64,000 nt of DNA from Polyangiales bacterium (GTDB lineage: Bacteria; Myxococcota_A; Polyangia; Polyangiales; Houyiibacteriaceae). The notes under the pieces are model-generated. The model did not search any database and was not told the origin of the DNA. It saw only the letters and a list, made by a program, of their open reading frames with translations. Numbering within the stretch: the stretch's first letter is position 1; every line of letters begins with the position of its first letter. Positions 1-16,870 of this stretch are shown one piece after another. The stretch is taken from contig OZ245758.1 of the NCBI GenBank assembly GCA_965227405.1, forward strand, positions 1,449,693 to 1,513,692. Direction: 5' to 3'. The position numbers and the translations under genes were made by a program.

Positions 1-3000
1 GGTCATGCAAGCACCAACGCTGGAGCCACAAGCCGCTCCACCACCGGGGTCGCCCTCATCGACCGTACCGTCGCAATCGTCGTCACGTCGGTTGCACACC
101 TCGACCGCGGGGTCGGCAATGTCACAGGCGTATTCGCAGCCCGTCGCCTCGATTCCGTCGATGTCGTAGAAGCCGTCCTCGCAGGCACCCAAGCGGCACT
201 CGCCGGCCGAGCAGGTTGCTGCGGCATTGAGGAAGCGACACGTGCGACCGCAGCTTCCGCAGTTCTCGATGTCCGTGTCGAAGTCGAAGTCCTCGTCGAC
301 GTTGCCGTCGCAATCGTTGTCGCGGAAGTCGCAGATCGAGTCGTCGGCTCCTGTCGGAATACACCGGTATTCACAGCCATTTTCAGGATCTCCGTCGATG
401 TCGAAGAACCCGACATCGCAGCGATCGATGCCGCACACGCTGTCGATGCACGAAGGGAACGCGGCGGGCGGTGTACACGCCATTCCGCAACCACCGCAGT
501 TCTCGGTGTCCGTCGTGGTGTCGATGCCCTCGTCGATCAGCTCATCGCAGTCGTCGTCGCGCTCGTTGCAGAGCTCGGGGGCTCCGGGAACGCAACCCGC
601 GTCGATGTTGGCGTCAAAGCCTGCATCGAGATCGGCATCCGGGGTTCCGGTATCGGGTCGCGTTCCGTCGACTTGAGCGTCGACCGGGGGAGGACCTGCA
701 TCTTCGCAATCGATGCAGAAGGGTTCGACGTCACATCCGCCTAAAAGGAAGAGAGCGCCGAGTCCGAGAAGGGCCGCGATGCGGCCTCGGACTTTTCCCG
801 AGGACGTCGCGACCGAAGAGGCCTTTCCGTTCTTGCGACGGCGACGCCAGCCCACCAGGACGAACATCACCAAACCGAGCGCCCACGGCGTGGGTGCTTG
901 TGATGCCGGCGTACCTGGAACGGCACACGCGCATCCGCCACCGCCGGCGCCGAGAAGGCGCGTTCGATCGTCGCCTCCCGGTCCAGCATCCAGACCCCCT
1001 CCATCGACGCCGGCATCCGGCATGCTCATCTCGACACACTCGCCAGCTTCACACACCTGCTCGCCGGGACAGTTCAGTCCGACACAAGGATCCGCTTCGC
1101 AATCACCCGTCAGCGGATCGCAGATGGTCATCGCCGGGCAAAGCACACCGCGACACATGTCCTCGACGCAGCTTCCGTCGGTGGGATCGCACGCTTCGCC
1201 TGCAGGACAGCTGACTCCGCCACATGCGTCGTCCACGCAGACACCGCGCGCACAGCGCTCGCCGTCCGGACATTCGACGCCCGCGCAACTCGCGACGCAC
1301 TCGCCGTCGATACACGCTTCGGTCTCGTCGCACTCCACGCTGGCGCACGGATCGGTCTCGCACTCGCCGGTTTCGACGTTGCAGACCTCACCGGTCTCAC
1401 AACCCAGTGCGCGACAGCTGTCCTCGACACAGGTGCCGGTGTTCGGCTCGCAAACCGTTCCGTCGGCACACACCGTCCCGTCGCACGGGAAGGTACACGC
1501 GTTGTTCTTGCACGTGCACGAAGGCGTGTCGTCGTCCGGACTACACAGCACTTCGCCATCGCGTTCGATCGTTTGCGGCGAACACGTTTCGGGTGTGCAG
1601 GCCTCGGCGACGCAGAAGCACTCCTCGCCAACCTCGAGCGGCGTGCGGCCGGTCGGACACACAAATCCAAACTCGCTTCGCTCACACGGCAGCGCGCACT
1701 GGCAGTCAACGCAGGAGCTACCTTCCGGACACAACGCGCCGTCAGCTTCTTCGTCGACCGATCCGTCGCAGTCGTTGTCCTCGCAGTCGCAACCTTCGAT
1801 GCCGGGAGGCACCTCACCCACACAGACTTCGCGTCCGTCGATGCACTGCGACACACCTTCCATGCAAAGGCCTTCGTCAGACCCGCAGGCCATGCCGAGC
1901 GGCAAGCCCTCGTCGATCGTGCCGTCGCAGTCGTCATCAAATGCGTTGCAGACCTCTTCCACGGGGCCGATTTCACCGTCGCAAACAGTCATTCCATCGC
2001 GACAAATCGTGATTCCCGGGCTGCACAAGCCTTCCGCCGAGCCGCAGGGAGCACCCACGCCCAGACCGTCGTCGGCAAGGCCGTCACAGTCGTTGTCGAG
2101 CCCGTCGCAGATCTCTTCCGTGGGTCCGACATCGCCGACACACATCAACGCGCCACCGACACACTGGATCATGCCGGTCGAGCACTCGCCGGTATCGGAA
2201 CCGCACGTCGTACCTACATCCGGATCAGTTTCGTCGACTCTGCCGTCGCAGTCGTTGTCATCGCCATCGCAACGTTCGATGCCCGGTCCGATTTCACCGA
2301 TGCACGCGCCGAACGATCCCGACGTACACACTTGAACACCAGCACGACAGACACCTTCATCGGATCCGCAAGACCGACTCTGTCCATCCACGCGGCCATC
2401 ACAGTCGTTGTCGAGTCCGTCACAGACTTCCGGACCACCCGTGGTGGCAGTACAGCCCACCCATGTTCCGGCCATGCACGTTTCGGTACCGGCCATGCAC
2501 TCGCCGATATCCGATCCGCAACTTCGTGTTAGGCCCTCGTCCGTACTGCCGTCGCAGTCGTTGTCCATGTTGTCGCAGGTTTCTGCGCCCGTTGGGACGC
2601 AGCCCATACACACGTCACCTTCGTCGATGACGCCATTGCAGTTGTTGTCGAGACCATCGCAGACCTCGGCGGGAGGCGTTCCGCACAAACCACAGGCGTT
2701 CAACGGCTCATCGGCGGTGCCATCAAAGCAGTTGTCGTCCGACATATCGCAGTCGTCACCGGGGTTTGTGCAGTAGTCGAGACTCGCGGTGGGAGCGCCA
2801 AACGTGCCGTCCAAATCACAGTATTTCTGGAAGCCCTCGTCGATCAGACCGTCGCAGTCGTCGTCGTCTCCATCGCACACTTCGCTCAACAAGGTGTCCG
2901 CAATGATTTGCGAGAACGCGAGCGCGACACCTTCTTCACTGGTTGCAGGAAGCGCTGCGGTGGTTCCACCCGCAGCAGCAATCTGGTTCGCTTGACCGAT

Positions 3001-3837: not shown

Positions 3838-4611
3838 ATGCTCGCGACGACCCGGCTCGGCGACGGCGACAAGACGTTCGTGTTTTTGCACGGCGTGTTT
3901 GGCCGAGGCTCCAACTGGCGCACGATCGCTCGAAAGTTCGTCGACGCGCGGCCTGAGTACAGCGCGCTTTTGGTGGATCTTCGGCTTCACGGAGACTCGT
4001 TGGACCTGTCTCCGCCGCATACGGTCGAACGAGCTGCCCAAGATGTTCTTGCGCTCGGTTCGATTCACGGAATCTCGGGGCACTCGTTTGGCGGGAAAAT
4101 CGCCATTGAAGTGGCGCGACATACACCGCTCGAATCGTTGTGGATCTTGGATTCGATGCCGGGTCCACGACCGGATCGTCGTGGATCTGAAGCAATTTCG
4201 AAGGTGATGGACGCGTTGCGCGCCGTGGACCGGAACTTCGAGACACGCGACGCGTTCGTCCAAGCGCTCGTGGCCCAAGGGCTCGTCGAACCGATCGGTC
4301 GTTGGTTGGCCATGAGCTTGAAGCGCGGCGACTCGGGCTTTGAGAAAGTGGTCGATGTCGACGCGATCGACGGAATGCTCGACGACTACTTCGCTCTGGA
4401 TCTCTGGCCTGCACTCGAATCGCTGGAAACCGAGACGCACTTGGTGATCGCAGAACGCTCAGAGGTGTTCGATACCGATGACCGAGCTCGGGCCGCGTCG
4501 ATCACCCGAAACGGCTTCCATGTCGACCACGTCAACGCTGGCCACTGGCTGCACGTGGAAGCGCCGACAGCGCTTTTGGCGTTGATGACTGCTTCTCAAG
4601 AAAAGTCTTAA
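3838..4611 (+). CDS. alpha/beta-fold hydrolase
   Basis: HGVFGRGSNW oxyanion region, GHSFGG nucleophile elbow (GxSxG), C-terminal HVDHVNAGHWLHVEAP with catalytic His. 257 aa. Confidence 0.85.
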   Translation: MLATTRLGDGDKTFVFLHGVFGRGSNWRTIARKFVDARPEYSALLVDLRLHGDSLDLSPPHTVERAAQDVLALGSIHGISGHSFGGKIAIEVARHTPLESLWILDSMPGPRPDRRGSEAISKVMDALRAVDRNFETRDAFVQALVAQGLVEPIGRWLAMSLKRGDSGFEKVVDVDAIDGMLDDYFALDLWPALESLETETHLVIAERSEVFDTDDRARAASITRNGFHVDHVNAGHWLHVEAPTALLALMTASQEKS

Positions 4612-4694
4612 GCAGAGCCTAAGACATTGTAATTGCTGAATTTTCTGCGACAAAAAGCTGTGAATCAGAGTCGGGTTGGGCCGGTCCAAATATC

Positions 4695-5381
4695 ATGAAA
4701 CGGACCTTGCCCCTTCTCCTTCTCAGCGCGGTCGCCTTTGCTCAAGAAGGCGGTGACGAACTCGCCGCTCCGAGTGCAGCCACCAGTGCTCATCGAGTCG
4801 CTTCGGAAGTTCAGGCGTTCTACGACCAAACCGATACGTTCTCGGCCCGCTTCACGCAGACGTACTACCACCGCCTCTACCAACGCTATCAGCGTTCAAA
4901 CGGTCGGTTCTACTTCGACAAGCCTGGTCGCATGCGCTTCGACTACGCGCAGCCCAACGGCAAGGTCATCGTGAGCGACGGAAGCCACTTCACTGCGTAC
5001 GACCCAGGTGACGAAGGTGAAGCTGGGCAATACGTAAAGGCGCCGGTCGGCGACAGCTCACTTCCGCGCGCGTTTGGTTTCCTGACCGGGCACGGACGGA
5101 TTCTCGACGACTACCGTGTGAGCCTCTTGGACTCAAACCGATATCGGTGGAGTGGTCCTGTGTTGGAGCTTCGTCCGCGTAACTCGGATCCGCGAATCCG
5201 ACGCATCCTTCTTTACGTCGATGGTGATGCCCGTCGTCCGGGTGTGGTGCACCGCATCCGAATCGACGACCACGAGGGCAACCGGAACAAGTTCGAGATG
5301 CGTCGAATGCGCTTCAACCGGGATATGTCGTCGTCACGCTTCGCGTTTAGCCCGCCGCGTGGAGCGCATCGTATCCAGTAG
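4695..5381 (+). CDS. LolA-like outer-membrane lipoprotein carrier or sorting protein, with signal peptide
   Basis: N-terminal MKRTLPLLLLSAVAFAQ signal. LolA-like segment FTQTYYHRLYQ...GRFYFDKPGRMRFDY...KVIVSDGSHFTAYDP. Confidence 0.7.
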   Translation: MKRTLPLLLLSAVAFAQEGGDELAAPSAATSAHRVASEVQAFYDQTDTFSARFTQTYYHRLYQRYQRSNGRFYFDKPGRMRFDYAQPNGKVIVSDGSHFTAYDPGDEGEAGQYVKAPVGDSSLPRAFGFLTGHGRILDDYRVSLLDSNRYRWSGPVLELRPRNSDPRIRRILLYVDGDARRPGVVHRIRIDDHEGNRNKFEMRRMRFNRDMSSSRFAFSPPRGAHRIQ

Positions 5382-5589
5382 TCATTTTGCAGCTAGTGGA
5401 TGGACTCACAGTTCTGGAGTCCATCCGTGTTCCATCGCCAGCGTTGTTCGACCAAAATGACTAGAGGTAAGGTGATGGAAACGGTCGGCGGCTCCCACTC
5501 GCCTAGTCATTTTGCTCGAACAACGCCACAACACAGCACGGATGCACACCGGTAAGAGTGAAACGAGTCGTGCACGAGCAAAATGACTA
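5379..5589. repeat. Cluster of four copies, in two inverted pairs, of the AT-rich 11-12 bp motif TAGTCATTTTGC / GCAAAATGACTA. A 23-bp inverted repeat (gcgttgttcgaccaaaatgacta ... tagtcattttgctcgaacaacgc, 1 mismatch) spans a 40-bp centre.
   Basis: Copies at about 5379-5390, 5453-5463, 5504-5515 and 5578-5589. The last copy overlaps the ATG at 5583 of the downstream gene. The AT-rich motif stands out in a ~68% GC background. Confidence 0.6.
5398..5426 (+). terminator. Perfect 10-bp stem / 9-nt loop hairpin (ggatggactc-acagttctg-gagtccatcc) 17 nt after the LolA-like stop. No U-tract.
   Basis: Read directly. The reverse complement of the left arm equals the right arm. Confidence 0.5.
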
Positions 5590-6149
5590 AGTGGGTCAGC
5601 GCCTGCGTCCTCGGCGAAGCACTCGGTCTTTCGCTCGCCGCTCTCCTCGGCGCATTCGTTTCGCGTCTGAGCGACGATGGATCCGGACTCGTCATCTTGA
5701 TGCCGATCATCGGTCTCCTTGAAGGCGCCGTCCTCGGCGCGTTTCAAGCGTGGGCACTCGGTCGCGGTCGAAAGTGGATCCTCGCTACGAGTCTCGCGAT
5801 CGGCGCGGCTTGGTTGGTGGGCGCGCTCGCGTCGACACTTGAACCACGCGTCACATCCCCACTGCTCATCCTGGGTGTCGCACTCTTGTTTGGACTCCTG
5901 GTTGGAGCTGCCGTTGGACTTGCACAAACACGCGTCGCGAATGCATCACACCATTGGTTGATCGCCAACGTTGCGGGTTGGTCGACCGGACTCGTCGCAA
6001 GCGCACTACTCAGCGAAATGGTTCCGTGGGGGCCATTCACGGCCTACGTGTTCGCGATCGAAGCACTCAAGGGAATCGCAGTGGGTCTCTGTCTCGGCCT
6101 GGTGACAGCACCGTATCGAAACCGGATCCAAGTCGCGCACCAAAACTAG
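5583..6149 (+). CDS. Hypothetical integral membrane protein (about 4-5 TM helices)
   Basis: Hydrophobic and Gly/Ala-rich throughout (LGLSLAALLGAFV, LLILGVALLFGLLVGAAVGLA). No recognisable catalytic motif. Confidence 0.5.
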   Translation: MTKWVSACVLGEALGLSLAALLGAFVSRLSDDGSGLVILMPIIGLLEGAVLGAFQAWALGRGRKWILATSLAIGAAWLVGALASTLEPRVTSPLLILGVALLFGLLVGAAVGLAQTRVANASHHWLIANVAGWSTGLVASALLSEMVPWGPFTAYVFAIEALKGIAVGLCLGLVTAPYRNRIQVAHQN

Positions 6150-6253
6150 GCAAATTCAGCCTCAAAATTCGCGACGCACCGGTCACAAGTTCTACCAATC
6201 ATTGGACTTTTACAGATCCGATGACATTTCTTTTACTTTTCTTGGCCAAATAC

Positions 6254-6332
6254 ACTGACACGTCAGTCTAGTTGAGCTAGAACCGCCCGGTTCGCGCGGA
6301 AACTGACACGTCAGTCTAGTGACCGCGCGGTC
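6254..6332. promoter_or_regulatory. Two 19-bp direct repeats (actgacacgtcagtctagt), each containing a 6-2-6 palindrome ACTGAC-N2-GTCAGT and each followed by a GC-rich palindrome (gaaccgcccggttc, gaccgcgcggtc). They lie 45-120 bp upstream of the lipid operon and are a candidate operator pair.
   Basis: Copies at about 6254-6272 and 6302-6320. Palindromes at about 6281-6294 and 6321-6332. Confidence 0.5.
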
Positions 6333-6376
6333 GCTAAATACCCGAATTCCGGGCGATTTCTGTGAGGGACGAATCG

Positions 6377-7039
6377 ATGAAGACCGCTGCTTTCTTCCGT
6401 GTGGAAGGGACACTGACCGAGCGCACCGCGATTGGCGCGTCGGCTTGGTTGGCGAGCAACGCTCAAAAGATGGGAGAGCGCGTCGCGCGCCTCGGCAACA
6501 TCGCGTTGGCTGCGCCGTTTGCGATTCTTGGCGAGCTGCAAACCGGCTCGACCGCTGCACGCATGACGTGGATGGGTCTGCGCGGAATGAGCGAAGACCG
6601 GATCGCGTTGCTCGGTGAAGAGTACTTCGAGAAGTTTCTCAAGAACGACGCGTTGGAGATCGGAACGCGCTTGTTGAAGCAAGCGAAGAAGGATGGTCGA
6701 CGCATCGTTCTGATCAGCGACAACATCGACCACGTGATCGCTCCCTTCGCAGAGGAGCTCGGTGCAGACGATTTGATCTGCAACCGACTGGAGATGCGAA
6801 AGGGTCGCGCCACCGGTGCACTCGAAGAGCCGATCATCGGCGGCAACGTCACCGGGCAGTGGGCCCGCGGCTTTGCCACCGAACACGAGATCGATTTGAT
6901 GAGCTCGTGGGCGTACGGCGCGAGCGCAGCCGACAGCTTGCTCCTCAGCGCAATCGGTCAGCCCTGCGCAGTGAATCCCGACCGTCAACTTCGTCGTCTC
7001 GCCAAGGACCACGACTGGCCCGTCGTGGAGAAGAACTGA
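6377..7039 (+). CDS. HAD-superfamily subfamily IB-like hydrolase with a degenerate motif I (FFRVEGTLT in place of the canonical DxDGT)
   Basis: RBS GAGGGA upstream of ATG 6377. HAD-IB-like GRRIVLISDNIDHV and AYGASAADSLLLS (motif IV). Both nucleophile and acid Asp positions are substituted (R, E). Stop overlaps the next start (TGATG). Confidence 0.7.
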   Translation: MKTAAFFRVEGTLTERTAIGASAWLASNAQKMGERVARLGNIALAAPFAILGELQTGSTAARMTWMGLRGMSEDRIALLGEEYFEKFLKNDALEIGTRLLKQAKKDGRRIVLISDNIDHVIAPFAEELGADDLICNRLEMRKGRATGALEEPIIGGNVTGQWARGFATEHEIDLMSSWAYGASAADSLLLSAIGQPCAVNPDRQLRRLAKDHDWPVVEKN

Positions 7040-8667
7040 TGACCACCCAGAAGCACAAGATCACCGGTATTCGCGATCGCCGCACGCTGGCGGAAACCTT
7101 CGCAGGCAAGAACCTCTTGGTCACCGGAACCTCCGGTTTCCTCGGCAAGGTCTGGCTGGGGATGGTGCTCGACTACCTGCCCGAGGTCGGCAAAATCGTG
7201 GTCGTTCTCCGCGGCAAAAAGGATCAGAGCGCCGAAGAGCGCTTCGTCCGCATCTTTGAGCGCAGCCCGGTGTTTCGCCCGCTTCGCGAACGACTTGGCC
7301 AAGAACTCCGCACCTTGATCGCCGACAAGATCGAGTTGCTTGACGGTCGTCTTACCGAGCCCTTTGCGGGCATGGATGAGAAGCGTGCTGCCGAAGTCAT
7401 GCGCGACATCGACGCCGTTGTGCACTTCGCGGGACTCACCGACTTCGAACCGGATCCCCAAGACGCCATCGACGCCAACATTCACGGCGCGTGGAACATG
7501 GCCGACCTCGCCGCCCTGAGTCGCGGCAAGCGCTACATCCACGTATCGACCACCTACGTGGCGGGTGTTGCCGACGGTCGAGTTGAAGAGTCGATCACGG
7601 CTGGCATCAGCCCCAACGGCACCGAGATCAATCCGCGCGCTGAAGTGCTGGCAATGGAGACGTTGATCCGCGCCGGCGAGACCAAGAAAGAGCGTCTGGC
7701 GATCGCGCGTGCACGCGCCGCGGAACTCGGCTTCCAGAACGTCTACACGTACACGAAGAGCCTCAGCGAGCACTTGATCGAAGAGCGCACGGACGTGAAG
7801 ACCACCACGTTCCGTCCCGCCATCGTCGAATGCGCACGCAGCTACCCCTTTGCCGGTTGGAACGAAGGCATCAACACCTCGGGTCCGCTGGTGTGGTTGC
7901 TCAGCACGCCCTTCCGCCGTTTGCCGGCCAAGAACGACATCTACTTCGATGTGGTTCCCGTCGACACTGTCGCGCGCTCGATGGTGCTCGTGGTGGGCGA
8001 TGCGCTTCGCGACGACGCGGAAGACGTCTACCAGTGCGGTTCGGGGTATCTGAACCCACTGATGATGCATCGCGCGATGGACCTGACCACGTTGGCGCTC
8101 CGTCGCACCGACGGCAGCTTTTTCACCAAGATCGATAGCTACTGCATGGACAACGCCGTCGAGCGTGAGCAGATCTTCGGCTACGCGCGGATGCGGCAAG
8201 CCAGCGCTGCACTGCGGAACACGCTTCGCAACTTGAAGCTCGAGCGCAAACTGCCGCCTTCGCTCTACGAGCGTCTCGGCGGAGACAAACTCGGCAAGAA
8301 CATCGAGTCGTTCCGCAAGACGCTTCGCGGAACGGAAAAGATGCTCGGCATGGTCGACAAGATGCTGCGCCAGTACCGGCCCTTCATCTACGACTACAGC
8401 TATCTCTTCGTCACCGAAAACCTCAAGCGAGCCAGTGCACGTTTGAGCGACGAAGACCGCGCACTCTTCGGCTTCGACGTCGAAACGATCGACTGGCGCT
8501 ATTACTGGTCGAAGGTCCAAGTCCCCGGTCTTGAGAAGTGGTCGATTCCGCTGCTCAAGGGCGAGACCGTTCCCGACGACGAGGCGTTGCCGCCCGCGTC
8601 CGACGGTGTTCGCACCAAGGGTGCGCTTCGCGAAGAGCGCAAAGAGATCCGCGCAACGGTCGCGTAG
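7039..8667 (+). CDS. Fatty acyl-CoA/ACP reductase-like protein (NAD_binding_4 'male sterility' thioester-reductase domain plus C-terminal FAR-like domain)
   Basis: Start ATG 7039 overlaps the upstream stop. LLVTGTSGFLGKVWL Rossmann GxxGxxG. YTYTKSLSEH (YxxxK). About 540 aa, typical of FAR enzymes. The track ORF from 6859 carries a spurious N-terminal extension. Confidence 0.85.
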   Translation: MTTQKHKITGIRDRRTLAETFAGKNLLVTGTSGFLGKVWLGMVLDYLPEVGKIVVVLRGKKDQSAEERFVRIFERSPVFRPLRERLGQELRTLIADKIELLDGRLTEPFAGMDEKRAAEVMRDIDAVVHFAGLTDFEPDPQDAIDANIHGAWNMADLAALSRGKRYIHVSTTYVAGVADGRVEESITAGISPNGTEINPRAEVLAMETLIRAGETKKERLAIARARAAELGFQNVYTYTKSLSEHLIEERTDVKTTTFRPAIVECARSYPFAGWNEGINTSGPLVWLLSTPFRRLPAKNDIYFDVVPVDTVARSMVLVVGDALRDDAEDVYQCGSGYLNPLMMHRAMDLTTLALRRTDGSFFTKIDSYCMDNAVEREQIFGYARMRQASAALRNTLRNLKLERKLPPSLYERLGGDKLGKNIESFRKTLRGTEKMLGMVDKMLRQYRPFIYDYSYLFVTENLKRASARLSDEDRALFGFDVETIDWRYYWSKVQVPGLEKWSIPLLKGETVPDDEALPPASDGVRTKGALREERKEIRATVA

Positions 8668-8676
8668 GGAGTCGAC

Positions 8677-9831
8677 ATGTCCGATGTAGTGTTCATCACC
8701 GGAGCGACCGGTTACCTCGGGTCGTACGTGCTCGACGCTTACCTGCGCGACACCGACAAGACCGTCGCTGTGCTTACGCGTGCGAAGAACCGCGACGAGG
8801 GTCTCGAGAAGCTGTGGAAGGCGCTGCAGCTCCACATGGACGCCGACACGTTTTGGCAGACCATCGATCGCGTTCAGATCGTCGCGGGTGACTTGCAGCA
8901 ACCCAAGCTTGGCATCGAAGACGCGACCTACGATCGGTTGGTTCAGCAGAGCGAATCGATTCTGCACATCGCTGCCTCGCTCAACCGCAAGAGCGAAAAG
9001 GCGTGTCTGAACCACAACCTCAAGGGCACGTTGTCCATGTGCAAGCTCGCTCGGGCCGCACACGACCATCACGGACTGCGTCGCTTTAGCTTTGTGTCGA
9101 CCACGGCGATTGCTGGAAAGCGCAATGCCGAAACGCTGACCGAAGACCAAGCACTCGAGTGGGATCGCTCGGACTACGACCCTTACGCGCGCACAAAGAA
9201 GTTTTGCGAGCACATGGTTGCTGAGCTTCTGCCCGACGTGGAGCGCACCATCTTTCGACCCAGCACTGTTCTCGGTGACTCGCGTCATCCGCGCAGCACC
9301 CAGTTTGAAATGGTGCAGGCGTTCAACACCGTGTTCTCGATGCCGGTGTTCCCGGTTCGTCCCGAAGCACGCATCGACATCGTCAACGCTGACTGGGTCG
9401 GTCGCGCGATGTTTGAACTGCATCGTCGTCCCGCCAAGTACGACTGCTATCACCTCTCCGGTGGCGTGGCGTCGCCGCAGGCTCGCGAGATCGCCAAGGA
9501 GATGGCCAAGGTGGGTCGTCGCGCGCCGGTGATGATTCCGCAGCTCTTGGGCGCCACGCAGTTTGCGTTCGATCAGATCGCCAGCCTGCCGCAGCGCAAC
9601 ACGGCGACCTACATCGGATCGCTGTTCAAAGTGTTCCTGCCCTACATCACCTTCGACACCGTGTTCGATAACGCACGTGCCGTCGAAGACACCGGACTGC
9701 AGCCGACGAGCTTTCTCGAGTACGGCGCGCCTTACGCCGAGTGGTGTCGCGCGCAGAAGTACCGCTTCCCCTACCAGCCTTTGCCGGCGCGACCGACGCG
9801 CGTGGCCGTCCCGACCGGAGCGAACCCGTGA
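8677..9831 (+). CDS. Second NAD_binding_4-type (thioester reductase / NAD-dependent epimerase-like) protein
   Basis: VVFITGATGYLGSYVL Rossmann motif, YARTK (YxxxK), FRPSTVLGD. 384 aa. Confidence 0.8.
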   Translation: MSDVVFITGATGYLGSYVLDAYLRDTDKTVAVLTRAKNRDEGLEKLWKALQLHMDADTFWQTIDRVQIVAGDLQQPKLGIEDATYDRLVQQSESILHIAASLNRKSEKACLNHNLKGTLSMCKLARAAHDHHGLRRFSFVSTTAIAGKRNAETLTEDQALEWDRSDYDPYARTKKFCEHMVAELLPDVERTIFRPSTVLGDSRHPRSTQFEMVQAFNTVFSMPVFPVRPEARIDIVNADWVGRAMFELHRRPAKYDCYHLSGGVASPQAREIAKEMAKVGRRAPVMIPQLLGATQFAFDQIASLPQRNTATYIGSLFKVFLPYITFDTVFDNARAVEDTGLQPTSFLEYGAPYAEWCRAQKYRFPYQPLPARPTRVAVPTGANP

Positions 9832-11573
9832 GTGAGAAGAAGAAAGAGCGGAAGGTTAAGATCTGGCGTCCAAAGGTCGAGGCTGAAGAGCCTGCTCCCA
9901 AAGAGGAAACCACCGCGATCACGCCGTCGGCACCGGCCAGTCTTGATGTGCGCGGGTTGCTCGACGACCTGCGTGCCTCCGTCGAAAAGCGCGACAAAGA
10001 AACACTCGTCGGTCTGTTCAAAGACATCGGCCGTGTTTCGTTCGACCGCATCAGCGAGTACGCCGACGCCGACCGCGCCCTGATGATCGCCATGAGCGGG
10101 TTCATCGAGGCCGCCGCAAGCCGTTACGCCATCGACCCTGGAGCACAGTGGGCTCAGGGTGAACCGCTTCGGCTACTCCTCGCTGGATATAGCGGTACGC
10201 GCAACACCGGTGCTGACGTTCGCGTCGAAGAGATGATTCGTCAGTTCCGCCATCTCTTTGGCGATGAGCATGTGGCGCTAAGCATCTTCACGCTCGATCC
10301 CGAGCTGACCAAGGGCTACTTCCGCACCGTTCGTCAGCTGGAACTGCCCAAGCTCTTCCCGAAGTTCCTCTTCGACACGATTCACGATCAGCACGCCGTC
10401 ATCGCGTGCGAGGGATCGATGTTCAAGAGCAAGTTCGCCAACGCGCTGAGCACCATGATGGTCGGCGCGATCGGTTTGGCTGCTGCCGAAGGTAAGCTGG
10501 CTGTGGGCTACGGCGGCGAAGCCGGCAAGATGGACAAGTCGCTGGCTCGCCTGGTGAAGAAGTACTGCCAGGACGCGCTGATCATCGCGCGCAACGAGAA
10601 CAGCAAGAAGATCCTGGGCGACCTCGGCGTCGCTTCGCGCAGTGGAACCGACACCGCGTGGACCTTCGATCCTGCACCGCCCGAGGTGGGTCGCAAGATC
10701 CTCATGGACCAGGGCTGGGACGGCAAAATGCCGATTCTCGCGCTGTGTCCGATCAATCCCTTCTGGTGGCCGGTCAAACCGCATGTGCGTCGCGCCGCGA
10801 TCAACGCCGCAACCGGTGTCTACAAGGACAGCCACTACGGCAGCGTCTACTTCCACAAAACCGGCTTCGACGTGGTCGAAGCACAGCACCGCTACTTGGG
10901 TTCGATCGCAACAGCCGTCGTGAAGGTGTTGTCCGAGGGCGAGCGCTTCTTCCCGGTCATGTTCGGCAGCGAACAGCTCGACCGCGAAGCCTGTGAGTCG
11001 ATCGACCGCAAGTTGGTACGTCGCTTGGGAGCGTTCGCGCCCACACGACCGGACGGCTCCAAGGGCTTCCCGATCATCGTCAGCGATGAGTACGACATGT
11101 ACCAGATGGTCAGCGCGATGCGTCAGTCCACGTACATGATCAGCAGCCGCTACCACGCGTGTGTCATGACCATGGCCGGCGGTGTTGTGTCCGGTGGCGT
11201 CACCATGGACGAACGCATTCGCAACCTGATGAAGGACCGCGGCACACCCGAGCTTGCGCTCGAGGTGGACGATCCGGATCTCTACGAGAAGACCTGCACG
11301 ATGATCCGCCACATGATCGCCAACGCGGATTCGATTCGCGAAGGCATCGATGGTTGTGTGTACGCCAACCTCGAACGCATGGGTGAGATGGGCCAGATTC
11401 TGGTCGACCACGTGCGCAAGCATCACCCGGAGTTCCCGTTCCGACCGGAGCTCGGTGAACACGGCGACCCCTGGGATCACCTGCCGACCTTGCCGCCTGC
11501 TGTGGCCGAGTTGGTGCAGCGTGTTCGTGCCCGAGGCCCCAAGGCCGTTCCGCAGTTGGAAGCACGAGCATGA
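9828..11573 (+). CDS. Polysaccharide pyruvyl transferase family (CsaB/WcaK/ExoV-like) protein with an about 100-aa N-terminal extension
   Basis: Probable GTG start at 9828 in a GTGA overlap with the upstream stop. The start is uncertain, and an internal ATG near 10080 is an alternative. LLLAGYSGTRNTGADV matches the family signature GYYGxxNxGD. C-terminal ISSRYHACVMTMAGGVVSGGV matches the conserved R-h-H C-terminal block. Confidence 0.65.
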   Translation: MSEKKKERKVKIWRPKVEAEEPAPKEETTAITPSAPASLDVRGLLDDLRASVEKRDKETLVGLFKDIGRVSFDRISEYADADRALMIAMSGFIEAAASRYAIDPGAQWAQGEPLRLLLAGYSGTRNTGADVRVEEMIRQFRHLFGDEHVALSIFTLDPELTKGYFRTVRQLELPKLFPKFLFDTIHDQHAVIACEGSMFKSKFANALSTMMVGAIGLAAAEGKLAVGYGGEAGKMDKSLARLVKKYCQDALIIARNENSKKILGDLGVASRSGTDTAWTFDPAPPEVGRKILMDQGWDGKMPILALCPINPFWWPVKPHVRRAAINAATGVYKDSHYGSVYFHKTGFDVVEAQHRYLGSIATAVVKVLSEGERFFPVMFGSEQLDREACESIDRKLVRRLGAFAPTRPDGSKGFPIIVSDEYDMYQMVSAMRQSTYMISSRYHACVMTMAGGVVSGGVTMDERIRNLMKDRGTPELALEVDDPDLYEKTCTMIRHMIANADSIREGIDGCVYANLERMGEMGQILVDHVRKHHPEFPFRPELGEHGDPWDHLPTLPPAVAELVQRVRARGPKAVPQLEARA

Positions 11574-12532
11574 CCACCAACGGAAACGGCAACGGTGTTC
11601 CGATGAGCACCCGCTTTGGCACCTGGCAGGCGCGTTTGATCGCCCGCTCGGTGGCCAAGGGTTTGCCGCGTCCGCGCAAAGGTGGAGGTCCGCGCGAGTT
11701 CGAGGGCGCCTGGCTTTCGTGGAAAGTCGTGCCCAACTCGGTGTCGGAGCACCTCGAGGTCACGCTTCATCACGAGCCATGCAATGAGATCGGAACCACC
11801 GCGCTAGGCGAGATCGAAAAGCTTGCCGCGTTTCTGACCGGAGGCGCCGGCGGTGCACGCGCGATGATCGTGCACTCCAACGTCAAGCGCGGGTTTAGTG
11901 CTGGTGCTGACTTACGCGAGCTGCACGCCAACCTGATCGCCAAGTACGACGACGGTGGACGTGGGCTTCGCAACAAGCTGGCGATCGCGACCGAGGTCCG
12001 CGGGTTCATCGACCGGATTCACGCGGCCTTCGATGCCATCGACACCGCACCGATCACCACGATTGCTGCCACACACGGTTTCGTGTTCGGCGGTGGTTTT
12101 GAACTCGCGTTGACCTGCGACGTGATCGTCGCGGAGAAGAGCACGCGCTTTGCGTTCCCCGAACTTCGTCTTGGGTTGGTGCCTGGCTTTGGCGGCATCC
12201 CCCGCTTGAAGCGCGACTTGGGCAACGCGGTGGTCCGCGATCTTCTGCTCACAGGACGTAGCGTCAGCGCCAAACGTGCGCACGAAGTGGGGCTTGTTTC
12301 CCAAGTGGTTGCACGGGGTTCCGGGCTGGACGTGGCCCGCAAAGTGGCCGAACAAGCATCGCGTTTCGACCCGCAGACCACCGCGCTTGCCAAGCGTTTC
12401 ACCAAACCTCTTCCGCGCGAAGAACTCGAGCGCGAGAAGGATCTTTTCATCGAGATGATGGGCTCCCCGGTTGTGGAAGCCGCACTCACCAAGTTTGTCG
12501 AGAGCGACGACGTTCGCCCTTACCTGCCCTGA
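11570..12532 (+). CDS. Enoyl-CoA hydratase/isomerase (crotonase-fold) protein
   Basis: ATGA overlap with the upstream stop. FSAGADLREL and ATHGFVFGGGFELALTCD crotonase signatures. Confidence 0.85.
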   Translation: MTTNGNGNGVPMSTRFGTWQARLIARSVAKGLPRPRKGGGPREFEGAWLSWKVVPNSVSEHLEVTLHHEPCNEIGTTALGEIEKLAAFLTGGAGGARAMIVHSNVKRGFSAGADLRELHANLIAKYDDGGRGLRNKLAIATEVRGFIDRIHAAFDAIDTAPITTIAATHGFVFGGGFELALTCDVIVAEKSTRFAFPELRLGLVPGFGGIPRLKRDLGNAVVRDLLLTGRSVSAKRAHEVGLVSQVVARGSGLDVARKVAEQASRFDPQTTALAKRFTKPLPREELEREKDLFIEMMGSPVVEAALTKFVESDDVRPYLP

Positions 12533-12540
12533 GAACAGAC

Positions 12541-12777
12541 ATGCAACGCGAAGAACTGATCAAGAAGCTGATTCAACTGGCGGCCAAGCGCTTCGAGCGC
12601 GGCGACGACCTTTCAGGCGCCGACGATTTCTTTGAGCGACTGGGTATCGACTCGTTCCAGGCGATGGAACTGATGACCGACCTCGAAGAAGAACTCGACG
12701 TCGAGATTCCGGACTACGAGCTGCAGGGCGTCAACACGTTCGAGAAGCTCGCCGACGTCATCGCACCGCGGTTGTGA
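12541..12777 (+). CDS. Acyl carrier protein
   Basis: 78 aa, acidic. LGIDSFQAMEL contains the phosphopantetheine-attachment Ser (DSL/DSF motif). Confidence 0.85.
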   Translation: MQREELIKKLIQLAAKRFERGDDLSGADDFFERLGIDSFQAMELMTDLEEELDVEIPDYELQGVNTFEKLADVIAPRL

Positions 12778-12781
12778 AGTC

Positions 12782-14488
12782 ATGATCCCGCCTGAACGAT
12801 ACAACTCGGTTGGCGAGCTGCTGCGCGACGCGTGCATCACGTACAAGACCGAAACGGCTTTGCTCGAGTACGACCGCAAGAACGAGAAGGCGTGTCTCTC
12901 GTACCTGGATGTAAAGCGCCAAGGCGAGCGACTTGCTCGACGGCTTCAGGATGCCGGCGTGGGTGCGGGCGACCGCGTGGCGATCGTAATGAGCAACCAG
13001 TCCAAGTGGCTGATCGCCGCCTACGCGATTCTCTATCGCGGCGCTGTGCTGGTTCCGCTGGACTACAAGCTCACCGGCCCCGAGCTGGAAAGCCTGCTGC
13101 AGCACGCGAAACCGAAGGTTTTGATCACCGAGTTCGCCTCCTGGCGAACCATGAAAAACATCGAAGAGCTCGAGTGTTTGAAGATCGTCAGCGAGATGCC
13201 CGACGGGACGGAAGGCACCTTCGAAGCCTGGGATGCGATGCCCGACACGCCGGGTGAGTTCGTGCCTCGACAGCGCAGCGACCAAGCGACGCTGGTGTAC
13301 AGCTCCGGAACCGGCGGTCAGCCCAAGGGCTGCATGCTCACGCATGACAACTACCTGGAGCAGTACCGCACTCTGATTCAACTCTTTCCGTTCAAGGTTG
13401 GGGATCGCTACTTCTCGATCCTGCCAACCAACCACGCGATCGACTTCATGGTCGGATTCGTGGGTCCCTTTGCATGCGGTGCTACTGTGGTGCACCAGCG
13501 TAGCCTTCGTCCGGATCTGATCCGTTGGGTGATGACCAAAAAGAAGATCACGCACATGGCTGTCGTGCCGCTGATCCTCGAAGCGTTCGAGCGGGCGATT
13601 CGAGAGAACCTGGACAAGAAGAACGACGTCATTCAGGTGGCGTTCGAACACGCCAAGCGACTCAATGCTGCGCTGACGTTGCAGAAGCCGCGACGCGGTG
13701 TGAGCCGTCGCTTGATGAAGCCGGTGCTCAATGGCATCGGTCCGCGCCTTAAGATGCTCTTTGTCGGCGGTGCTTTCGTCGATCCCGATCGTGCGCAGTT
13801 CTTCTACGACGTCGGGCTTCCCGTCGTGATTGGCTACGGATTGACCGAAGCCTGCACGGTCTTAACCGTCAATGATCTCAGGCCTTTCCGCTCGGACTCG
13901 GTCGGTCGTCCACTCGAGGGTGTCGAGATCGAAATCCGCAATGCGGACGACAAAGGTGTCGGCGAAGTGTGGGTCAAGAGCCGCACAGTGTTCGCCGGTT
14001 ACCTCGACGAGCCAGAGCTGACCGCCGAAGTTCTTCAAGACGGATGGCTGCGCACCGGTGACCTCGGTTGGCGCGATCCAAGTGGTCACCTTCACCTCGT
14101 CGGTCGCAGCAAGAACATGATCGTCACGGCCGGTGGTAAGAACATCTACCCCGAAGACATCGAGATCGCGTTCGAAGGTGTCGACTGCGAAGAGCTTGTC
14201 GTGTTTGCGTCCGGCTACGTGTGGCCTGCGAGTGGCGGCAAGGAGCTGACCAAGGAATCGCTCTTTGCCGTGGTGCGTGGCAAAGACGGCTCGGTCACCG
14301 ACGACGTGCTCGCTGACCTTCGTCAGCGCAACCACAAGTTGCCCGACTTCAAGCGTGTGGCCGGTGTGCTCGATTGGGACGACGCGTTTCCGCGCACCGC
14401 ATCGATGAAGGTGAAACGCGGCATCCTGGCCGAACAGATTCGTGAGAAGGCCAATGTCGACGCCATTCGGAGGATCGCGCTCGGATGA
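12782..14488 (+). CDS. AMP-dependent synthetase/ligase (fatty acyl-AMP/CoA/ACP ligase)
   Basis: LVYSSGTGGQPKGCMLTH AMP-binding motif I. GYGLTE and GWLRTGDLG motifs. 568 aa. Confidence 0.9.
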   Translation: MIPPERYNSVGELLRDACITYKTETALLEYDRKNEKACLSYLDVKRQGERLARRLQDAGVGAGDRVAIVMSNQSKWLIAAYAILYRGAVLVPLDYKLTGPELESLLQHAKPKVLITEFASWRTMKNIEELECLKIVSEMPDGTEGTFEAWDAMPDTPGEFVPRQRSDQATLVYSSGTGGQPKGCMLTHDNYLEQYRTLIQLFPFKVGDRYFSILPTNHAIDFMVGFVGPFACGATVVHQRSLRPDLIRWVMTKKKITHMAVVPLILEAFERAIRENLDKKNDVIQVAFEHAKRLNAALTLQKPRRGVSRRLMKPVLNGIGPRLKMLFVGGAFVDPDRAQFFYDVGLPVVIGYGLTEACTVLTVNDLRPFRSDSVGRPLEGVEIEIRNADDKGVGEVWVKSRTVFAGYLDEPELTAEVLQDGWLRTGDLGWRDPSGHLHLVGRSKNMIVTAGGKNIYPEDIEIAFEGVDCEELVVFASGYVWPASGGKELTKESLFAVVRGKDGSVTDDVLADLRQRNHKLPDFKRVAGVLDWDDAFPRTASMKVKRGILAEQIREKANVDAIRRIALG

Positions 14489-15387
14489 GCGACAAGACCA
14501 CCGTGATTGTGAACGGCGCCGCGGGTGGCGGACGTTGTCGTGAAGCGGCCCAAGGTGCGCTGAGTCGGCTTCGTGCGCTCGGCATCGAAGCGGACGTACA
14601 CTACACGGAGCGAGCCGGACACGCCTCGGAACTAGCTAAAAATGCTTACAATTCTGGATGTCGCGAGCTCGTTTCGGTGGGTGGGGACGGAACCACGTAC
14701 GAAGTGGTCAACGGACTCTTTCCGCGGCCGGCGGGACATGACGATCCCGTTCGGCTCGGCATCTTGCCCTTGGGTACCGGCAACTCGTTCTTGCGCGACT
14801 TCAATGTGATGAACACGAGTGACGCATTGGATGCGCTTACACGACGTCGTGCACGAAGCATCGACGTGGTTCGCGTGAAGCACTCCACGGGAGTGTTGCA
14901 CTACATCAACTTGCTCACGATCGGTTTCGTCACGAACGCCGGTGATCTGACCAACCGACGCTTCAAGCCCTTCGGCGAAGCCGGCTACCTGATGGCCGCG
15001 ATGGTCTGCATCGCGCGTCTGAAGAACTCGAGCGATCCGATCCGCATCGACGACGGAGATATCGACGCACGTCCGGCACCGTTCTTGGTGTTCTCGAACA
15101 GCCAGTTCACCGGGGGTTCGTTTCACATCGCTCCGCATGCAGATCCCACCGACGGTGAGATCGATGTCATCCGCGCTGTGCCGATGAACCGTGGTGCGTT
15201 CGTGAAGAACCTACTGGCTGTCTACAAAGGCAAGCACGTTGAAGATCCGCGCGTGGAAGAGCGTCGAGCCAAGAAGGTGACGTTCCAAAGCCCACGCGAG
15301 CACTTGGTGATGCTCGACGGAGAGATTTTGCCGCTGACGCTTGAGTCGCTGGAAGTGATGCCGAGCGCCTTGGAGGTTTGGGCATGA
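14485..15387 (+). CDS. Diacylglycerol-kinase catalytic-domain lipid kinase (YegS/BmrU-like)
   Basis: ATGA overlap. VIVNGAAGGGR and VSVGGDGTTYEVVNG (GGDGT) motifs. Confidence 0.8.
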   Translation: MSDKTTVIVNGAAGGGRCREAAQGALSRLRALGIEADVHYTERAGHASELAKNAYNSGCRELVSVGGDGTTYEVVNGLFPRPAGHDDPVRLGILPLGTGNSFLRDFNVMNTSDALDALTRRRARSIDVVRVKHSTGVLHYINLLTIGFVTNAGDLTNRRFKPFGEAGYLMAAMVCIARLKNSSDPIRIDDGDIDARPAPFLVFSNSQFTGGSFHIAPHADPTDGEIDVIRAVPMNRGAFVKNLLAVYKGKHVEDPRVEERRAKKVTFQSPREHLVMLDGEILPLTLESLEVMPSALEVWA

Positions 15388-16247
15388 GTACCGCCGCAAA
15401 GCCTGCTGGAACCGAGAAAAAGCTCGATCCGAACAACCCCGCTCATGCCTCGCATATTGGCGACTGGCGCGAGTGGCGGCCGAGTTTGGTCGACCGCGCA
15501 CTCAGTGGCTTGTGTTGGGGAACCGCAGTGTCGTGGTTGGTGGGATGGACCAACGTCCTGACGCCGATGAACTACATCTTCGGTGCGCACAAGATCCCAG
15601 TGCATCGACTGAGTCAGTTCTTCTCGCGTGGATTGGTCGCGTCCACGTTTTCGTCGTGGAAGGCCTGGGTGCATCCCGATGTGCGTGACGACGAGCAGTA
15701 CATTTTCTGCCAGAACCACATCAACCACTTCGACTTCATCACGATGTATCCCGCCACCCCGCACTACAAGCAGGGGCTCGAGCTGGAGACGCACTTCAAG
15801 TACCCCGTGTACGGCCAGTTCATGAGTAGTCGAGGTACGGTCCCGGTTCCGGCGAATCGCGACAAGCGCTTCGATGCGGTGCGCGAAGGCATCCGCACGG
15901 AGCTTGAGGAAGGCCGAAGCATTCTGGCGTTTCCTGAGGGCACGCGGACATTGAGCGGTCGCGTCGGACCGTTTCGGTCGGGTGTGTTTCGCGTGGCGCG
16001 CGATGTCGGCGCAAAGGTTGCCCCCACCGCTGTGGTCGGGATGTACGACGTGATGCGCAAGGGTTCGCTGATGTTGCGGCCTTTCGGTGATGTCCGCGTG
16101 TTCATCGACAAACCCGTTGATTTCACGGGTGTTTCCGACGACGAGCTACCCGCCAAGATCGACGAGGTTCGCAACGCGATCGTCCGTCGTGTCGACGACT
16201 ATTTCGAGGAGAAGCAGTCATGCCAAGCACCGAGGAAGCGCGGATGA
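15384..16247 (+). CDS. 1-acyl-sn-glycerol-3-phosphate acyltransferase family (PlsC/AGPAT-like) protein
   Basis: ATGA overlap with the kinase stop. NHINHFD (HX4D catalytic motif) and AFPEGTR (motif III). Confidence 0.85.
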   Translation: MSTAAKPAGTEKKLDPNNPAHASHIGDWREWRPSLVDRALSGLCWGTAVSWLVGWTNVLTPMNYIFGAHKIPVHRLSQFFSRGLVASTFSSWKAWVHPDVRDDEQYIFCQNHINHFDFITMYPATPHYKQGLELETHFKYPVYGQFMSSRGTVPVPANRDKRFDAVREGIRTELEEGRSILAFPEGTRTLSGRVGPFRSGVFRVARDVGAKVAPTAVVGMYDVMRKGSLMLRPFGDVRVFIDKPVDFTGVSDDELPAKIDEVRNAIVRRVDDYFEEKQSCQAPRKRG

Positions 16248-16870
16248 GTTCCGTGGATCGTCGTACGGAGCGCGCGACGCGTAAGCGTCGTGATCGCCGT
16301 AAGGCGATCCTACAGGCCGCCCGTCACGTGTTTGCGGAGAAGGGATTTCACCGCACGCACGTCAGCGACATCATCGAAGCGGCGAACATCGCACGCGGCA
16401 CGTTCTACCTGTACTTCGAGTCGAAGAACGCGATCTTTCTGGAGCTGCTCGAGGGTCTGATCGGCGAGGTGCGCGAGAGTATCGTCGGCGTGGATACCAA
16501 GGAAGGCGCACCTCCCGTGCAGCTTCAGCTCGCGCATACATTGCGGCGCGTGTTGGCCACGGTGGTCGAGAACCGGGATCTGACGCGTATTTTGGTGCGT
16601 GAGGCCGTGGGTCTGGGCGAAGACGTCGATGCGCGACTCAACACGTTCTACACGAACTTGTTGGAGTACATCCGGCAGGCTCTGGACAACGGGCAAGAGA
16701 TGGGGATTCTGCGCGAGAGCATGGATACGCATCTCGCATCACTCTGTGTGCTGGGAACGATCAAGTCGTTCATGGAGCAGCTGGTGATGGACGAAGACGG
16801 ATTGGGTGATGACGTCGACCGATTAGTGGTGGCGGTGCTCGACTTTAATCTTCGAGGGTTGCTGAAGTAG
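16244..16870 (+). CDS. TetR/AcrR-family transcriptional regulator
   Basis: HTH RKAILQAARHVFAEKGFHRTHVSDIIEAANIARGTFYLYFESK. ATG 16244 overlaps the AGPAT stop (ATGA). The track offers an alternative start at 16220. Confidence 0.85.
   Translation: MSSVDRRTERATRKRRDRRKAILQAARHVFAEKGFHRTHVSDIIEAANIARGTFYLYFESKNAIFLELLEGLIGEVRESIVGVDTKEGAPPVQLQLAHTLRRVLATVVENRDLTRILVREAVGLGEDVDARLNTFYTNLLEYIRQALDNGQEMGILRESMDTHLASLCVLGTIKSFMEQLVMDEDGLGDDVDRLVVAVLDFNLRGLLK

Follow-up and report, generated by a model that had tools for sequence, protein, structure and literature searches.

Template switching creates and homogenises hairpins (PMC8794818, PMC8604942) and creates or extends quasi-palindromes (for which also PMC7202029), and the locus described here can be set beside this process and beside several families of structured intergenic sequence. 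It is the spacer between a lolA-like gene and the gene of a 188-aa membrane protein in a Polyangiales bacterium (GenBank assembly GCA_965227405.1, contig OZ245758.1, positions 1,449,693 to 1,513,692 of the forward strand). The whole stretch of 64,000 nucleotides that was analysed is called the window, and positions are counted from its first letter. The spacer carries a cluster of four copies of an AT-rich motif. Comparison with related sequences gives good support to an anatomy in which a conserved intercistronic stem-loop (unit 1) is followed by a strain-specific inverted paralogue of it (unit 2), which displaced the downstream gene's original start codon.

Quasi-palindromes formed by template switching resemble the locus in several aspects, which include a reverse-complement copy beside its template, repeats that are specific to a lineage (unit 2 in the window, a 39-nt left arm in the related contig L003), a multi-base cluster of changes that completes a stem in the related spacer S5, and pairs of arms that stay complementary while their sequence drifts. 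They differ from it in that the copied segment here is long (~86 nt), is 34% diverged and ends at pre-existing terminal repeats. Translational coupling by RNA unfolding has been reviewed with the examples of rpmI-rplT (+52 nt spacing), MS2 coat-lysis and f1 VII-IX (PMC12548453). The window shares with these the co-oriented genes, a predicted masking of the start, and a complementary strand at the place where the upstream ribosome finishes. Here, however, the distance from stop to start (201 nt) is far longer than in the known cases, the structure is a ~210-nt rod with four interchangeable arms, and the likeness is one of prediction. Ribosome termination structures (PMC7518266) are similarly stable structures at or right after an upstream stop codon; they are local and insulating, whereas the structure here extends to the next start codon.

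Likewise, the units share with Correia elements and other bacterial MITEs (miniature inverted-repeat transposable elements; PMC2649163, PMC10969869, PMC2229807) a small size, terminal inverted repeats, TA ends, an intergenic position and a probable co-transcription, and their hairpins could affect the expression of the neighbouring genes. Unlike these elements, they have no dispersed copies among the sequences searched, are orthologous across lineages, have no matching transposase nearby and leave no clean empty site. The repetitive extragenic palindromic (REP) sequences, with the bacterial interspersed mosaic elements (BIMEs) and the REP doublets (REPINs), are also intercistronic palindromic units in alternating orientation. 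REPs, however, number tens to hundreds in a genome, share a conserved 5' GTAG and come with a REP-associated tyrosine transposase (RAYT); here there is a single locus within 64 kb, and only copy 1 of the four is preceded by a G, which belongs to a CAG codon.

The two units of the spacer

The motif TAGTCATTTTG(C) occurs four times, in alternating orientation, inside 211 nt, and the 64-kb window holds no other copy. A repeat search thus bears out the two inverted pairs described in an earlier sequence-only reading of this DNA. On the + strand the motif TAGTCATTTTGC lies at 5379-5390 and 5504-5515; in reverse complement it stands without a change at 5578-5589 and with 11 of 12 bases at 5452-5463. 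No further copy of TAGTCATTTTGC with 0-1 mismatch exists in the 64-kb window, and a longer 19-mer spanning the arm has no second site there. Matches with two mismatches number two elsewhere in the window, against a mean of 2.2 in shuffles of the whole 64 kb. Four near-exact copies in 211 nt are far beyond chance. Copy 1 opens with the LolA stop TAG (5379-5381), and copy 4 holds the ATG of the membrane gene (5583-5585), an overlap that had been noted correctly from the letters.

The central inverted repeat had been given as 23 bp around a 40-bp centre; the repeat and its single mismatch stand, but the arms are 24 nt long (5441-5464 and 5503-5526, 96% complementary) and 38 nt lie between them. 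A scan of the whole window for strong inverted repeats, with up to 400 nt allowed between the arms, returned only those of this spacer. The 211-nt region is indeed AT-rich, its guanine-plus-cytosine (GC) content of 0.517 falling in the lowest 0.5% of equal-sized windows, although the surroundings are less GC-rich than the ~68% once supposed (0.61 in the window).

The spacer was compared with six other lolA-to-membrane-gene spacers, obtained from the contigs of membrane-protein homologues; for one of them, S5, a 26-nt overlap served to join contigs L016 and L005. Unit 1 (5379-5464, ~86 nt) stands directly after the LolA stop and is found in the same place in the window, L001, L011 and S5. In these four it runs from the stop codon and the left arm (TAG)TCATTTTGGTCG through the inner hairpin GGATGGAYTCAC...CCATCC to the right arm GCGTTSTTCGACCAAAATGACTAG, after which come GAGG and a start codon. 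The 5' arm opens with the lolA stop (TAGTCATTTTGGTCG), and the 3' arm CGACCAAAATGACTA adjoins the downstream Shine-Dalgarno (SD) sequence. The counterparts of arm 1L read TAGTCATTTTGGTCG in L011, AGTCATTTTGGTCG in S5 and CATTTTGGTCG in L001, and arm 1R is kept in L001, L014 and L011. The inner hairpin is retained in L001 and S5 with G-U pairs on the + strand, and one of its pairs is C-G in the window and U-A in L001. Contigs L014 and L015 have a 45-nt spacer with the right arm, the SD and a GTG start only. The occurrence of unit 1 at the same site in L001, L011, S5 and, in part, L014 implies that it is ancestral to the clade.

Outside these spacers, a lolA locus of 73% identity (L033) has a different downstream gene, an unrelated terminator and no unit 1. 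Scans of genome contigs for the membrane protein, with a single sequence and with an alignment, returned only one Gemmatimonadales match of 37% identity, and a protein scan of metagenome contigs for more orthologous loci returned none. The ATG at 5457, in arm 1R, was considered as the start of a conserved upstream open reading frame (ORF) and rejected, being CTG in L014 and out of frame in L011.

Unit 2 (5503-5589) is complete in the window only and is absent from L011, S5, L014, L003 and L013. Its reverse complement (5500-5592) aligns over the full length with the unit-1 orthologues at 61-68% identity, and at 66% with unit 1 of the window. This is comparable to the identity among the unit-1 orthologues themselves (59-71%). 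The two units agree unevenly, at 12/12 positions of the outer ends, at 23/24 of the centre and at ~55% of the stretch between, and the best-kept parts of unit 2 are those which are conserved among the unit-1 orthologues. The homology stops exactly at the arms. Set against the 3' half of the hairpin in S5, the interior of unit 2 has 21 of 28 bases identical (shuffle p ~0.02), and it also matches sub-terminal sequence of the L014 type. Unit 2 is hence best read as an inverted paralogue of unit 1, and the four motif copies are then the two arms each of one element and its paralogue. This also explains the partly reverse-complementary interiors, an observation of the sequence-only reading which the alignments uphold. 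Together the two units make up a quasi-palindrome of ~210 nt.

The 38-nt centre between the units reads CTAGAGGTAAGGTG-ATG-GAA-ACG-GTC-GGC-GGC-TCC, in the SD context seen in L014 and L011 (CTAGAGG, then the start codon). The peptide METVGGS encoded from this relic ATG resembles the homologue N-termini MGGGSKW and MGSAGKW in its G-G-S codons, and the relic ATG now heads a 26-codon ORF that ends with TAA at 5553-5555. To judge from these letters, the gene was apparently parted from its old SD and ATG (5464-5477) by unit 2, and its present ATG, at 5583, lies inside arm 2R. This present ATG is the sole in-frame start between a TGA at 5559-5561 and the conserved K-W residues of the protein. The N-terminus ahead of K-W varies by lineage (MTKW, MSSSKW, MGGGSKW, MGSAGKW, MNPRRW). 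Deletion of 5506-5589 in silico restores the in-frame reading METVGGSHSPKWVSAC... / METVGGSHSPKW... behind the relic SD; such a restoration has a 1 in 3 chance and is only suggestive. The features are listed in Table 1.

Table 1. Coordinates of the features in and around the spacer (positions within the window)
Feature	Position	Strand	Remark
lolA-like gene	4695..5381	+	stop TAG 5379-5381 forms the first 3 bases of arm 1L
Arm 1L, TAGTCATTTTGC, 5' arm of unit 1	5379..5390	+	predicted partner is arm 2R
Inner hairpin of unit 1: GGATGGACTC, 9-nt loop, GAGTCCATCC	5398..5426	+	from the inverted-repeat search
Arm 1R, GCGTTGTTCGACCAAAATGACTAG, 3' arm of unit 1	5441..5464	+	24-bp helix with 2L, one mismatch
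Relic Shine-Dalgarno (GAGG 5464-5467, AAGGTG 5469-5474) and relic ATG 5475-5477	5464..5477	+	
Centre or apical loop of the quasi-palindrome, 38 nt, with small hairpin 5487-5503	5465..5502	+	
Arm 2L, CTAGTCATTTTGCTCGAACAACGC, inverted copy of 1R	5503..5526	+	from the inverted-repeat search
Diverged interior of unit 2	5527..5574	+	alignable in reverse complement with the 3' half of the relatives' unit-1 hairpin
Arm 2R, CGAGCAAAATGACTA, holds ATG 5583-5585	5575..5589	+	complementary to 1L (12 bp) and 2L (15 bp)
Gene of the 188-aa multi-pass membrane protein, family unassigned	5583..6149	+	no Pfam or NCBIfam match

Turnover of the spacer between lineages

The near-identical strain L001 differs from the window drastically in the spacer between flanks that are 98.3% and 99.7% identical (six mismatches in lolA, none in the membrane gene). 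Its spacer measures 132 nt, compared with 197 nt in the window. Its unit 1 is just 71% identical to that of the window and is accompanied by 30 extra nt on the left, and of unit 2 it retains only GCAAAATGACTAAGTGG, the last ~17 nt, the same start codon included. As to a polymorphism of presence and absence, which had been proposed as a check, L001 lacks most of unit 2, but no clean empty site was seen, and unit 1 is present in the window, L001, L011 and S5.

The two strains also differ outside the spacer. At 4510-4657, covering the 3' end of an alpha/beta-hydrolase gene and the spacer ahead of lolA, there are ~30 substitutions and a 13-nt indel at 4593, and the gene upstream of lolA is called with 131 aa in L001 against an ORF of 257 aa in the window. 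Similarly, 11 of the 12 differences in the right flank fall within 220 nt of the second NAD_binding_4/epimerase gene (8715-8937). These clusters of single-nucleotide polymorphisms (SNPs) are typical of recombination imports, and such an import may also explain the difference in the spacer.

Inverted repeats recur at the spacer between lolA and the membrane gene with lineage-specific sequences. For example, L003 has a 39-nt inverted repeat (97%) with 90 nt between its arms. The right arm and the adjoining interior are shared with S5 in direct orientation, and S5 is without the left arm, which from this comparison looks derived in L003; alternatively, S5 could be a recombinant. A four-base cluster of differences between S5 and L003 (ATACGG vs AGAATG) completes a 9-bp hairpin in S5 and removes the ATG of the L003 type. 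Likewise, L013 has a long imperfect rod that is partly homologous to that of L003, with at least one double change from A-T to G-C (the arms were read by eye).

Further peculiarities are seen in the contigs of the relatives. Short-read Logan contigs from many samples (L005-L010 at position 1; L016-L018 and L020 at the 3' end) end at one small hairpin, GGTTCCGTA-N15-TACGGAACC, located 42 nt upstream of the gene, and overlap by 26 nt only; variants that co-exist in the sampled populations, e.g. an inverted loop, could account for this. In the S5 lineage, a 517-aa ORF without a Pfam match (L016 1057-2610, - strand) lies between the hydrolase gene and lolA, and lolA is called with 149 aa. In L011, a low-coverage long-read contig, the first codons of the membrane gene show apparent +1 and +2 indels (2830-3000) and the protein is called with 142 aa; these are probably sequencing errors, or possibly the mark of a pseudogene.

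Predicted fold and a possible coupling to lolA translation

Prediction of the RNA structure of the ~210-nt region, as proposed in the earlier reading, gives one long rod, in which 1L pairs with 2R and 1R with 2L; the helix of 5379-5390 with 5578-5589 is present in both the minimum-free-energy and the centroid structures. The + strand folds with -99.1 kcal/mol (z = -5.4) and the - strand with -101.5 kcal/mol (z = -5.8). The z-scores of the other spacers are -10.2 in L003, -7.4 in L013, -2.5 in L001, -2.4 in S5, -1.8 in L011 and +0.6 in L014. In the window, L001, L003, L011 and L013, the helix that closes the structure links the region of the lolA stop with sequence at, or just 5' of, the downstream start or SD. 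Of the two strands, the + strand has the better fold in L011, S5 and L001. The five unit sequences show 84.5% pairing, compared with 31-45% for slid controls. When 5367-5394 is forced to be unpaired, as a mimic of a terminating ribosome, the mean pairing probability of 5575-5595 drops from 0.81 to 0.48 and the 1R:2L helix persists.

Family and signal scans of the region returned little. Rfam at a permissive threshold gave only mir-2242 at 5470-5613 (26.3 bits against a gathering threshold of 70), which was rejected as a sub-threshold artefact of a generic long hairpin. A scan of the spacer and its surroundings for sigma-70 promoters and terminators found nothing relevant except the small hairpin at 5487-5503, and no sigma-54 -24/-12 motif was found by eye. 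In the window, the unit-1 inner hairpin (5398-5426), with its 10-bp stem, lacks a T-run and is not called a terminator by the scan. Its tails are T-richer in L001 and S5, and at the corresponding position of L003 stands a canonical terminator-like hairpin.

The explanation preferred here combines a conserved stem-loop, its inverted duplication by template switching, and a masking of the start that is relieved by ribosomes terminating on lolA; taken as a whole it is tentative, possible rather than probable. The most likely origin would be a local inverted duplication through replication template switching at the pre-existing hairpin. The insertion would have separated the old SD and ATG from the ORF, leaving the gene to start at the ATG in 2R. 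The mRNA that runs from lolA into the membrane gene is predicted to fold as the rod, in which the lolA stop in 1L would be held against the start in 2R and 1R against 2L, masking the start. A ribosome terminating on lolA would cover 1L and free 2R, and the translation of the membrane protein would thereby depend on the translation of lolA, a mechanism of the 'RNA unfolding' type. The long duplex could also be a processing site of RNase III. The locus offers what template switching leaves behind, namely a reverse-complement copy beside the template that is derived relative to the outgroups, and what RNA unfolding needs is there in the predicted fold, with the start sequestered and its partner strand under the terminating lolA ribosome. 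An origin by template switching is plausible, the junctions being no proof of it. The function is read from coordinates and thermodynamic prediction, and insulation, or no role, would likewise be possible.

Several observations weigh against this explanation. On the side of origin, a reading of the junction sequences revealed no microhomology, and the identity of the copied tract is not uniform. With an identity of only ~55% to unit 1, the middle of unit 2 cannot stem from one recent duplication, and either the event must be old or the allele was imported. Moreover, the boundaries of the duplication are exactly the terminal repeats, which a transposition model predicts more naturally. On the side of function, neither strand folds better than the other in the window, L003 and L013, as is expected of a DNA-level palindrome without selection on the RNA. 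The 45-nt spacer of L014 has no significant structure, and the long helix is therefore dispensable in at least one lineage. Covariation among the five sequences is no better than in shuffles, a single pair having changed in both of its bases, and it is chiefly the sequence of the arms that is conserved. That lolA and the membrane gene are co-transcribed is assumed only from their shared orientation and the lack of a promoter-like site between them. Lastly, stable structures immediately behind a stop codon have been reported to act as insulation against re-initiation and not as couplers (PMC7518266).

Neighbouring genes and competing explanations

The assignment of the upstream gene to LolA follows from Pfam LolA (E = 3e-21) and from the NCBIfam lolA model (E = 1.5e-30; 106.2 bits, slightly below the model cutoff of 112 bits). 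By its LolA homologues the window belongs to Myxococcota, in the vicinity of Sandaracinaceae. The 188-aa membrane protein matches nothing in Pfam or NCBIfam and has seven homologues among 5.8 billion proteins. It is the first in a co-oriented string of genes after the spacer (5583-16870), which continues with a HAD-IB hydrolase, two fatty-acyl-reductase-like proteins, a pyruvyl-transferase-like protein, an enoyl-CoA hydratase, an acyl-CoA synthetase, a diacylglycerol kinase, an acyltransferase and a TetR regulator (16220-16870). The string is probably a lipid pathway, of a fatty alcohol or ether-lipid-like kind. No recombinase or transposase gene is present from about -5 to +13 kb of the element.

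The nearest competitor accepts the same origin and denies the function. The spacer would be a mutational hotspot at which pre-existing hairpins provoke template switching and recombination imports, inverted duplications would build up and turn over neutrally, and the start codon in an arm would be a tolerated accident. Such a course is somewhat unlikely. The equal folding of both strands, the lack of significant covariation and the unstructured spacer of L014 speak for it just as they speak against coupling. The drastic difference of the window and L001 alleles between near-identical flanks, together with SNP clusters typical of recombination tracts, fits it as well, and the downstream protein belongs to a tiny, fast-evolving family. 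Against neutrality, the arms TAGTCATTTTGGTCG and GCGTTSTTCGACCAAAATGACTAGAGG are conserved though the interiors of the units are near saturation, and the same parts are kept in unit 2. The helix between stop and start is found in five of the seven lineages despite unrelated arm sequences, and start regions are normally selected for a lack of structure.

A mobile origin of the units, which the sequence-only reading had raised as a MITE-like remnant, survives as a minority possibility. The spacer would contain two copies of a small MITE of ~82 bp, with terminal inverted repeats GTCATTTTGSTCG and, like members of the IS630/Tc1-mariner group, a duplicated TA target; Correia elements would be its counterpart. 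The copies would stand in opposite orientation 40 bp apart, unit 2 having entered the 5' coding end and supplied an outward-facing ATG. The units are indeed discrete and short (85-86 bp), with TA on both sides and terminal inverted repeats of 13-15 bp, whose arms pair over 11 bp in unit 1 and 15 bp in unit 2. Their homology ends exactly at the terminal repeats, and the ends are conserved while the interiors vary. The removal of 5506-5589 restores the ORF behind the relic SD, as described above, and the removal of unit 1 would leave CAG TAG AGG..., a compact junction of stop and SD. Unit 2 is largely missing from the sister strain L001, and Correia elements behave similarly when transcribed (PMC2649163, PMC10969869).

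Each of these points has its counterweight, and two insertions of a MITE are unlikely overall. The target-site duplications that were to be looked for amount to TA at both ends of both units; TA is self-complementary, may simply extend the inverted repeat, and is indistinguishable from two more paired bases. The restored frame has its 1 in 3 chance. L001 is no clean empty site, since the right end of unit 2 is kept there and other sequence stands in place of the rest. In four lineages unit 1 stands at the orthologous position and has kept its ends, a sign of constraint at the level of the host. No transposase is nearby, and a second random insertion 40 bp from the first would be unlikely in a 9-Mb genome. 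A motif confined to this site and not conserved in relatives had been envisaged as telling against mobility; it is confined to this site in the sequence searched, but it is conserved in relatives. No other copy, by the motif or by an nhmmer profile of the unit, was found in the 64-kb window, which covers ~0.7% of the 9.07-Mb genome, and in ~70 kb of related contigs. A scan of JGI metagenomes with a paired-arm pattern gave 12 matches, unrelated, mostly in AT-rich contexts and with unrelated interiors, which were rejected as dispersed copies and taken for chance or other palindromes. Two JGI contigs unrelated to each other (L021 964-1039 and L025 9748-9823) share a 76-nt palindromic element, oriented oppositely in the two; it is rich in GTCATT/AATGAC repeats and has no relation to the element of the window.

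A variant that retains the RNA would make the spacer an attenuator-like switch. Without a ribosome at the lolA stop, 1L:1R and 2L:2R, or the rod, would hide the ATG; with a ribosome on 1L, 1R would capture 2L over 24 bp and free 2R with the ATG. The sister lineages would have re-invented this clamp of stop to start several times by independent inverted duplications. Such a switch is quite unlikely.

It is more improbable still that the arms are DNA binding sites of a regulator, e.g. the TetR-family protein at the end of the lipid cluster, and that the duplication doubled these sites. The conservation of the arms by sequence and not by covariation, the place of the TetR gene within the same co-oriented string, and the AT-richness of the region relative to the genome would agree with this. 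The 12-mer, however, is not palindromic, and its partner copies are 38-63 nt apart, too far for the operator of a dimer. No sigma-70-like promoter lies in or near the spacer, and the motif is upstream of no other gene of the window, the TetR gene included. The multi-site operator suggested earlier is given up on the same grounds.

A recombination site, the third of the earlier suggestions, fares no better, and an invertible phase-variable switch or another site-specific recombination site is very improbable. Inverted repeats do flank short segments just upstream of the membrane protein gene, the alleles vary between strains, and the short-read contigs of six samples all break in the spacer. 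Yet the surroundings hold no recombinase gene within the range given above, the alleles differ by indels or replacement and not by inversion, the segments common to the window, L001, S5 and L003 are collinear and never inverted, and the flanked segments are without a promoter. A chimeric inverted duplication made in assembling the long contig, for which it may be said that the complete unit-2 allele is known from the source contig only, is barely credible, as artefactual fold-backs are near-perfect while unit 2 is only 66% identical to unit 1, and L001 independently carries the right end of unit 2, same start codon included. A REP/REPIN, an attC site, a retron and a type I toxin were dropped from consideration, the locus being single-copy, without GTAG conservation and without a reverse transcriptase or integrase, and its small ORF non-hydrophobic.

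The feature is real and non-random, is explicable by known processes, and stands outside any catalogued family as a fairly ordinary structured spacer. As the case shows, a cluster of four 'sites' can be a by-product of one inverted duplication of a stem-loop, and its copies are then not to be counted as independent motifs. If the functional reading fails, the locus would be a small hotspot at which palindromes turn over, and its wider interest would be limited. If the preferred explanation holds, with its inverted duplication and its coupling to lolA, the spacer would be a natural example of template switching that builds a long regulatory hairpin, in which the arm of a repeat donates a new start codon to a conserved gene and coupling by RNA unfolding spans ~200 nt.

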